NCBI GenBank assembly: GCA_035221665.1
Contig: CM069131.1
Location: 8,060,001 to 8,124,000 of the forward strand
From: Okamejei kenojei
Taxonomy: Eukaryota
Length of the DNA stretch: 64,000 nt
Direction: 5' to 3'
The notes under the pieces were generated by a model. The model was given only the letters and a program-made list of their open reading frames with translations. It was not told the origin of the DNA and searched no databases. A program made the translations under genes and the position numbers. Positions 6,205-8,496 of this stretch are shown one piece after another. Within the stretch, counting starts at the first letter, position 1. The number at the start of each line of letters is the position of its first letter.

Positions 6205-7293
6205 CCCACAGCATTACAAGGCCTGTCAAGGGAATAGATTACCTGTTCAACAGAGGGTACAATTCAATGATGAGCTTCCTTATAAACAGAAATGCAACAT
6301 CTCTACTCAAATTACAGGAGGGGCATTTGAGATGGCATTAAGAAATTCAAAGTCCATGAATCAGAGGTACCCAGGTGCCCAGCGTAAACAACCAAAGGCG
6401 TGCACTACCTCACAAATGACCCACCCTTTCACGCACTTGCTCTCAGTGAAGAGTCCGCAAGTCCCGGGTCAGCTTCCTCAGCTGCTTCACAGACTTCAGC
6501 ATGGTTGAAGGCAGGTTATCCCGGAGGAGGGAGTCGGAACGAGGGCCAGTATGTGGAGCGGCGAGCGGGAGGCAGTGCAGGGCCTCGACGGGAGAAGAGG
6601 GCCACTGGAGGCCCACGAAGCAGCCTAGGTGCTCGGCCTAGTGGCCCAGCGAGCCGCAGCCCTATCCCAACCGCAGGCTTGGCTCACCCAGGGAGGGAAG
6701 GCCCGCCAAGCCCGACCCCTGCTCACCCCGTGGATCCGGAATTGGAGAGCAGGGCAGAGGGAGACAGCGGACGCTGGAACAAGGGCCCGATGAGAGGAAA
6801 CAGGTGGGGGGGTCTTTTACCCTCTACCTCGAGGCCCCTCCCCCCGCAGTGGGAACAAAGGGCTGAAGAGGACCCGGTGTGGAGAGCGACGTGGGATCAC
6901 ATGAAGACCGGAATGTAGGTGACGGCTCCAACGGGCTTTGTGGCCAACTACAGCTTAGACTGTAGAATCACGCTAAAATGGTGCCTATAGACTCAGTGGG
7001 CTCTTCTGTGCATACTGTACTGAGCAGGGTGATTGTCTTGCCGAGCTGTTTGCAAAAATATGATTTCACTGCCAGCAAGATCACATGCCCTGTTGATCTA
7101 TTGTGGCGGTAGGTGAATTAGCAGTAAGTCCAGATCCTTTCTATTAGTAGGCACCATATAGTACAGTGTAATATGCACCATAACCAATCTCTCAATGCAC
7201 TTATTACCTCAGGTATTAGTGGCACCAATTAGAAGTAATTGAGGCATGTTACCTTCATCTTCTCGGGCATTGATGGGAACCTTGGACCTCAGC

Positions 7294-7487
7294 CTTCTTC
7301 TTTCATGTCCATCTTGCTAGAAATGTTGACAACATCGTTGTCATCGTCCGTCCTGAAAAGGACGCAAGCATCCGGCGACAATCAATGGGAGCCACCGCTT
7401 GTCGCAATAGATGATGGCGGTAGCAGAATTTGCTCGGGATACTTCCAGTTTCCAGCCCCGCGACGTGGACGCTTCTGCTATGGGGCC
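7294..7487 (-). mobile_element. Short ribozyme-headed retroposon-like insert with (GAA)n tail
   Basis: 5' HDV-like fold, three downstream hairpins, 3' ...CATGAAAGAAGAAG; imperfect TSD GACCTCAG (7285-7292) / GAGCCTCAG (7489-7497). Confidence 0.65.
7421..7487 (-). ncRNA. HDV-like (CPEB3-like) self-cleaving ribozyme, predicted
   Basis: GGCCCC A TAGCAGAA GCG TCCACGT CGC GGGGCT GG AAACTGGAAGTATCCCGAG CAAA TTCTGCTA gives P1 (6 bp, G.U at the cleavage site), P2 (8 bp), P3 (3 bp), P1.1 CC/GG, a bulged P4 and the catalytic C at 7432. Confidence 0.85.
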
Positions 7488-8496
7488 TGAGCCTCAGTAA
7501 CAAGAGGTCAGCAAAAGATGTCAGCAAAAACTCCAGCCAGTTGGCCTGCACATGTTTTAAGAATGAGGCCAGGCCATGTCACTCACCAAGAGTTCACCCT
7601 TATGAACATTGGCCTCAGTGTCTGAAATGACAATGCTGTTGAGGGTTACGAAGTCTGAGTAGGTACGTCGATGTTTTTCCCTTTCGCACTTTGGTTTCTT
7701 TTGCATTAGTATTGTGTTTATTAACATTACATTTTTTGATTATCATATTTATCCATGTATATTGTGTTTCTGGGCCTTTCATGTTGCAACAAGGAAGAAT
7801 TCATTGCTCCATTGTCAATAAACATGACAAACGCTCTTGACTCTTGAAGTTATAAAAACAGTCTGATTTCTTTAAACTTGTTGGTCCTACCTGCCTGGGT
7901 CAGGTCTGCTTTCCGTCCCCAGAGTCAGAACGGAACATGGAGAAGCAGCGTTTAGTTTTTATGCGCCACATATATGGAACAAACCTCCAGAAAAATGAAA
8001 GGTCCGCTCCAACTCTCAGTTCTTTTAATTTGGGGCTGAAGACTTTTCTGTTTGACACTGAATGAAATTAAAGATCAAGTTGGCTTGGTTATATCAAATA
8101 CTATTTCAAATAAAAAGGTCTTGTCTTTCAATACAACTTCAAAAGAGCCAAAGTCATTCCTCTGTGACCCTGTTCAAATTTCAAAGATTCAGTTCCAGCT
8201 TGATGATCAACATGATTAATAGCTACACCTACAAAAGAGACAGAGACATTGACGGAATCAAGGTCTCCTTGTGCCCCTCGGTCAATCAGTATTGAACTAG
8301 GACATTACATTTCCAATTGACCATCTGTGCCAGCACTTTGTTTAAAGGGCTCTGTTTACTATTTTGCATAAAACCACCAGGAAAGCAGAGAAAGAGTGAA
8401 GCTGGATCAGGTAAACTTTACTTTAAAGTAATGTGTGGAGAAAAATACCTGGTAATTTTTACCTGATGCATCAAATATAATGTAGTTGGAGGACTG

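Follow-up and report, generated by a model that had tools for sequence, protein, structure and literature searches.

Does the ribozyme-like sequence in a stretch of the genome of the skate Okamejei kenojei serve its host as a single copy, as the mammalian CPEB3 ribozyme does, or is it the head of a mobile element? The question is raised by a window of 64,000 nucleotides (assembly GCA_035221665.1, contig CM069131.1, forward-strand positions 8,060,001 to 8,124,000), in which a single Rfam match was obtained, to CPEB3_ribozyme at 7422-7496 on the minus strand, with 38.6 bits against a gathering score of 35. A first-pass annotation, made from the letters of the window, had placed a CPEB3-like ribozyme at the head of a retroposon of about 194 nt. 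Our study agrees with it on both points: homology between copies runs on the minus strand from 7487 (G1) to 7294, and this 194-nt copy is one member of a family whose lengths range from 192 to 195 nt. Its features are collected in Table 1. Elsewhere in the window, positions 38141-38821 are a 681-base run of N.

Table 1. Features of the element and its surroundings, in positions of the window.
Feature	Position	Strand	Basis and remarks
Whole non-autonomous element	7294..7487	-	Inter-copy homology begins at 7487 and stops in the tail at 7294; 7487 is also where contig ends pile up in four other organisms
HDV-like ribozyme fold	7421..7487	-	Rfam 38.6 bits; core pairs all intact in the window copy; covariation among relatives
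Ribozyme P1	7487-7482 with 7459-7454	-	6 bp, G1-U wobble
Ribozyme P2	7480-7473 with 7428-7421	-	8 bp
Ribozyme P3, L3, P1.1, P4	L3 7469-7463	-	P3 3 bp; P1.1 two pairs; P4 short and weak
Candidate catalytic C	7432	-	In J4/2
Predicted ribozyme cut	directly 5' of 7487	-	
Parent 5' UTR remnant	7396..7420	-	About 50 nt lost near 7403; alignment with parent copies
First ~22 codons of parent ORF	7328..7395	-	Start codon now GTG in the window copy; parent alignment
Parent LINE 3' end with (AAG)n tail	7294..7327	-	Belongs to the short-tail subfamily, which lacks 4 nt relative to the parent end; seven parent-family loci match it at their 3' end
Hairpin 1	7375..7405	-	Encloses the old start codon; perfect in 40/104 copies
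Hairpin 2	7349..7364	-	6-bp stem, 4-nt loop; perfect in 50/104 copies
Hairpin 3	7327..7343	-	Spans the deletion junction; in 1/104 copies, made by a 3-nt insertion
Target-site duplication, G1 side	7488-7497	.	10 bp, 8/10 identical to 7283-7292; adjoins G1 directly
Target-site duplication, tail side	7283-7292	.	An additional base lies at 7293
Older host repeat, decayed reverse-transcriptase fragment	7173..7563, limits approximate	-	Paralogues without the element; RT-like translation of one paralogue; depth profile

The sequence is not single-copy. A genome search with the element yielded 2584 first-look candidates, and all 40 that were scored proved 89-100% identical over nearly the full length, on many contigs. 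Exact patterns of the 51-nt head and of the 36-nt tail of one subfamily were found in at least 71 and at least 99 copies, respectively, and their reversed controls gave 0; the genome probably contains a few thousand copies in total. In the alignment of the 30 top copies, columns 5' of G1 are unconserved and positions 1-16 are kept in 29-30 of the 30. Since these copies had been chosen by likeness, the boundary test was repeated on 30 copies chosen by their tail alone: 20 of them start at G1, 25 start within 7 nt of it, and the remaining five are 5'-truncated. The same limit is present in public contigs of four other organisms, where each run shows 216-257 contigs whose match breaks off at 7487, with unrelated flanks beyond, and it recurs in the contigs of two further organisms. 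These results bear out the expectation of the first-pass annotation that 5' ends would stack at the ribozyme G1, and homology between copies does not run past the proposed ends.

Among 128 fetched loci, 104 full-length copies were retained after the removal of nine head-selected loci in which the match ended early, ten tail-selected loci that did not start at G1, and five duplicates. Target-site duplications (score of at least 8) flank 69 of these 104 copies, compared with 2 of 600 mismatched-pair controls, so that each copy having its own duplication, as had also been proposed, is upheld at the level of the family. The duplications measure 8-13 bp, mostly 11-12, and adjoin G1 directly in 51 of the 69 cases, with an offset of one base in another 11; the targets are pyrimidine-rich, followed by A. 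The retained copies comprise 78 with a short tail, the type found in the window, and 26 with a long tail, and diagnostic changes are common to the members of subfamilies; therefore, the short form itself was copied and not re-made by repeated deletion. On average they differ from the majority sequence by 5.6%, a value biased low by the selection of copies. Three loci (L040, L172, and L175) start at G1 and stop within the body with a flanking duplication still present, a pattern that suggests internal priming of reverse transcription.

The window copy is inserted into an older repeat of the host genome, on the same strand. The flanking duplication described in the first-pass annotation as imperfect and within about 1 nt of the cleavage site does exist, and it is better read as 10 bp with two mismatches adjoining G1 directly; taken alone, it scores 4, no better than chance. 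We consider 7488-7497 and 7283-7292 to be the duplicated target because uninterrupted paralogues of the host repeat run straight through that sequence. This repeat, whose translation resembles what we take to be the Rex1/Babar clade, has 340 candidates in the genome; the element is absent from all 14 paralogues fetched, and in nine of them BLAST places left-flank homology directly upstream. These alignments provide a paralogous version of the empty site that had been called for. A clean orthologous empty site was sought in contigs of other organisms and none was obtained: in one organism a contig bridges the tail junction, and the site is filled there; in another, a contig with the unique right flank runs on for 42 letters unlike the head, which is suggestive of an empty site only; and the joints that skip the element in other organisms' contigs come from host-repeat paralogues.

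With these data, we can return to the initial question. A single-copy ribozyme with a host function, accompanied by hairpins and a flanking repeat that arose by chance, would agree with the assignment of the Rfam match to the CPEB3 family, with the unremarkable duplication of the window copy, and with an equally unremarkable fold score: in a program without pseudoknots, folding of the complete 194-nt sequence shows no advantage over its shuffles (z -1.39; 15 of 200 shuffles as good). The thousands of candidates, the empty paralogous sites, and the parent LINE described below refute this explanation as the origin of the sequence, and we assign it next to no probability.

Alignments with longer elements identify the sequence as a non-coding element that arose by internal deletion from a Vingi-type LINE present in the same genome, whose two ends it joins. 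Read in frame, the body of the element resembles what is presumably the start of a Vingi ORF, and this was the lead to the parent. The parent copy L125 is full-length, at about 3.1 kb, carries the same first base G1 and the same tail as the short element, and is flanked by a perfect 12-bp duplication; a LINE partner with both termini in common, as had been predicted, is thus present. In terms of this parent, the short element consists of the ribozyme, the 5' UTR minus about 50 nt, about 22 codons, and the last 34-38 nt. Positions 1-157 of the short element are 85-92% identical to L125 and sister copies in two blocks, and the last 34-38 nt are 81-95% identical to seven loci of the parent family. 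The remaining ORF-start segment of the window copy shares 13 of 21 residues with the N-terminus of a sea-urchin protein (P0004; E 3e-07); no coding capacity is left in the short element, in which no Pfam match was found. The start of the L125 ORF is matched by only eight loci, so the parent is rare in comparison with its derivative, and every parent copy observed is broken. Given this and copies that lie about 5-6% from the majority sequence, the family now looks inactive.

The parent has the form of a decayed LINE with a single ORF for an endonuclease and a reverse transcriptase (RT). In a broken parent copy, Pfam gives a strong RT match and a weak endonuclease match (E 0.011), and intact relatives carry both domains. 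RNase H was found in none of the 120 relatives listed, nor in three full-length relatives. RTE elements are not known to carry RNase H either. We classify the parent as Vingi type for its compact single ORF with an APE endonuclease and an RT and without RNase H, which fits the definition in the available portion of PMC13708176; the RT tree includes no named Vingi or RTE protein. A comparison by eye with the 5' end of Repbase Vingi-2_Gav (3128 nt), taken from the accessible part of the PMC5786205 supplement, shows agreement with the head in 21 of 22 core positions and in 10 of 10 positions at the P2 end.

Two other routes to the parent failed: none of 68 exact-head copies ran on into a LINE ORF, and all 30 loci fetched in a genome search with PF14529 belonged to a different LINE family. 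The latter (L063-L092, L074) is abundant and young-looking, has a PF14529 endonuclease and open frames of up to 1276 aa, and is unrelated to the element. Two heads of a sister LINE family, the second Vingi-like family of this genome, came from a motif search. One of them belongs to a decayed full-length copy (L093:347-3444) with a head of 52.8 bits that lies closer to CPEB3, an AAG tail, and a 10-bp duplication; its RT piece gave 150 matches in several families, one of which has both ends in common with the short element. According to the RT tree, at least five Vingi-like families coexist in this genome.

Among the matches listed, the named proteins closest to the parent protein come from sea urchin, with 70-74% identity (L125 and L146-L148 against P0002 and P0004), which places the parent nearer to them than to other Vingi-like families in the skate genome. 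The same sea-urchin proteins are about 42-52% identical to the other Vingi-like families of this skate genome. The RT tree (34 rows, midpoint root) joins the parent with the sea-urchin sequences with a support of 96/90, and horizontal transfer between the two lineages appears likely from these comparisons.

A structural descriptor reads the 67 nt of the window copy as a complete HDV-like fold and found none in 71 control windows. The head contains the nested double pseudoknot of this class (P1, P1.1, P2, P3, and P4), with a P1 of 6 bp and a weak P4, and all key positions are present: the C in J4/2, the U-G in L3, and the G1 wobble, each of which has a functional role in HDV-like ribozymes. Across nine heads, which we picked as ribozyme-like, 93% of the alignment cells are paired and 10 of the 16 pairs are altered on both sides, a result reached in none of 500 shuffles and from which slid controls also fell far short. 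This covariation indicates that the fold is selected at the level of the lineage. Once inserted, copies decay: the core is perfect in 6 of 20 tail-selected, and thus unbiased, copies of the short family, and non-CpG changes in head and body show no clear difference (52/1142 and 70/1297), that is, no sign of selection on inserted copies.

Similar heads occur more widely. Sister heads have a P1 of 7 bp. Relatives from metagenomes (61 loci) bear like heads; of the 17 that were scanned, five match the CPEB3 family, two of these above the Rfam threshold with 55.6 and 43.3 bits, and one gives a sub-threshold match to a different HDV family. Two Vingi-like heads (L234:89-200 and L236:5-111) show a variant HDV-like fold in which P1 is broken by an inserted hairpin.

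An RNA cut at G1 is predicted from this fold and by analogy with NARTc and R2 SIDEs, since the heads of NARTco and of R2 SIDEs cleave in vitro, according to the parts of PMC4035085 and PMC3414825 available to us. The short P1, the weak P4, and the seemingly neutral decay of copies could also be taken as signs that the ribozyme of the short element had ceased to work or to matter, in which case the element would have spread by virtue of its shortness and its LINE tail alone. We regard this as very improbable: the deletion removed 2.9 kb together with about 50 nt of UTR, yet the entire fold was kept in all subfamilies; an identical 6-bp P1 is present in the parent LINE; and the 5' ends are exact.

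The three hairpins that the first-pass annotation placed behind the ribozyme have a different status. Their named sequences are in place and all three appear in the predicted fold of the window copy, but they do not form a purpose-built module, as the body derives from the 5' UTR, first codons, and tail of a LINE; the copy counts in Table 1 rule out a three-hairpin module as a feature of the family, given hairpin 3 in a single copy and a perfect hairpin 1 in a minority. The inner stem of hairpin 1 comes from the parent; the outer pairs were gained in one subfamily once the UTR deletion had occurred, and in another subfamily the hairpin is broken. The distance between hairpin 2 and the endonuclease start is the same in both families of this genome and across the 6 of 16 listed, distinct metagenome ORF starts that have the hairpin, even with differing encoded residues (L093:497-512, L247:497-512, L248:3484-3499, L262:388-403, L263:137-152, L276:124-139, and window 7349-7364); the hairpin is absent from another Vingi-like subgroup. 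In nine rows selected because they contain the hairpin, pairing covers 96% of cells and three of six pairs are changed on both sides (equalled in 1 of 500 shuffles for pairing and 14 of 500 for pair count). We regard hairpin 2 as a conserved cis element in part of the clade, probably a protein-binding site. With the histone stem-loop model, whose threshold is 34, relatives' versions reach 14-33.6 bits, a likeness that we consider a weak lead. As an actual histone mRNA 3' stem-loop (RF00032), hairpin 2 was rejected: the window copy has no match at E 10, and it sits at an ORF start, not at a 3' end.

How did such an element spread? The two-part origin, the ends in common with a LINE, the duplications, the exact G1 boundary, and the conserved fold can be brought together in one account of an element of same-genome Vingi origin, which we hold with fairly good confidence. 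Host or self-started transcripts would carry the element; the predicted HDV-like ribozyme would trim them to G1; and the parent protein would recognise the 34-38 nt tail and prime reverse transcription at a nick, copying the RNA into a new site. Tail recognition and nick priming are adopted here because they are established non-LTR biology, and mobilisation in trans by the parent protein is suggested by the common ends and similar duplications. The lack of a tRNA-like Pol III head, which the first-pass annotation had pointed out, was corroborated: no A box, B box, or tRNA was found in 104 copies, and no small-RNA head in the Rfam scan, so the element is not a SINE of the tRNA, 7SL, or 5S type. 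A scan for bacterial promoters, which has no relevance for this element, found nothing.

The first-pass annotation's reading of the element as promoter-less is borne out as far as Pol III boxes go. It is important to consider that an internal promoter starting at G1 would also give a precise 5' end. The same origin and mobilisation could thus be combined with a head whose main role is that of an internal Pol II promoter, or one that unites promoter and ribozyme, its fold protecting the 5' end or being a passenger. There is a precedent in Pr77, promoter and ribozyme in L1Tc/NARTc (PMC4035085, in the part available), and Pol II very probably transcribes bipartite LINEs, as stated in the accessible text of PMC5786205. 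The bases in the 11 one-base offsets (5 G, 4 T, and 2 C) point in the same direction, as the extra G before G1, present in 5 of the 69 duplication-bearing copies, could be a copied cap. Two facts make this explanation rather unlikely. First, 51 of the 69 duplications adjoin G1 without any extra base. Second, catalytic-core positions and pairing are kept over distant lineages, which a promoter alone would not need. We therefore retain trimming by the predicted ribozyme as the preferred source of the 5' end.

The kind of element to which this family belongs is already established by NARTc, RIME, R2 SIDEs, and the Vingi-1_EE derivatives. It has the attributes of a bipartite non-autonomous LINE, or SIDE: a 5' part and a 3' part from one LINE, duplications, and no coding capacity. 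According to the available text of PMC5786205, such elements derive from RTE, Ingi, Vingi, and R2, and the six LINE clades given there as having 5' ribozymes do not include Vingi. NARTc, RIME, and SIDER of trypanosomatids (L1Tc/ingi clade; PMC4035085, in part) are likewise short derivatives of Ingi-group LINEs that kept a 5' HDV-like head and the 3' end; our element differs in its vertebrate genome, its parent without RNase H, its 6-bp P1, and a cleavage that is predicted from sequence. The R2 SIDEs of Drosophila (PMC3414825, same limitation) share the internal deletion and the ribozyme head, along with release from co-transcripts and trans mobilisation, both of which are proposed here; they are site-specific in 28S rDNA and longer (R2Dwi_SIDE, 529 bp), whereas this family is dispersed, with duplications of 8-13 bp and an APE-type parent. 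The bipartite non-autonomous Vingi derivatives, namely the Vingi-1_EE derivatives, SINE2-1_ACar, and SINE2-1_AMi (PMC5786205, as far as accessible), belong to the same clade and have the same internal-deletion route, a nearly identical head core, and a similar tail motif; our element lacks a tRNA head.

The resemblance to the mammalian CPEB3 ribozyme (RF00622) remains to be placed. Both have the same fold, with an almost identical sequence in P2, P3, and L3; with the CPEB3 model, sister heads reach 52.8 (L093) and 55.6 bits (metagenome). CPEB3 is a single conserved intronic copy with a 7-bp P1, a one-pair P1.1, and a long P4, whereas this element is multi-copy and decaying, with a reversed P1 sequence (6-bp P1, two-pair P1.1, and weak P4). 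Leaving out the P4 tip, a comparison by eye of human CPEB3 (a primer sequence in the available part of PMC5984629) with the head of the crocodilian Vingi-2_Gav gives identity at 51 of 54 positions, made up of 37 among the first 40 and all of the last 14. Because other heads of the clade have a like fold with a quite different sequence, descent is more probable than convergence. On these comparisons, Vingi LINEs and their miniatures probably supply animal genomes widely with active HDV-like ribozymes and move between them horizontally, and the mammalian CPEB3 ribozyme is probably one domesticated Vingi head. Our literature search found no statement of a ribozyme on Vingi, of its near-identity to the CPEB3 ribozyme, or of the sea-urchin sister lineage, and no link of CPEB3 with Vingi or Ingi, nor of the histone stem-loop with non-LTR elements, including in the accessible part of the CPEB3-origin text PMC10919898; the novelty of these points is therefore provisional.

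With this family, Vingi joins the LINE clades known for a 5' HDV-like ribozyme, here a predicted one. Its natural deletion defines a minimal set of cis signals, namely a 67-nt head, a short ORF-start segment, and a 34-38 nt tail, in a clade that is now in use as a platform for RNA-templated gene writing (PMC13708176, in the part available). If the proposed spread of active Vingi ribozymes, with CPEB3 as one of them, is true, this genome would contain hundreds to thousands of ribozymes still able to cleave, from which similar exaptation could draw. The family also offers a testable origin for the memory-linked CPEB3 ribozyme.
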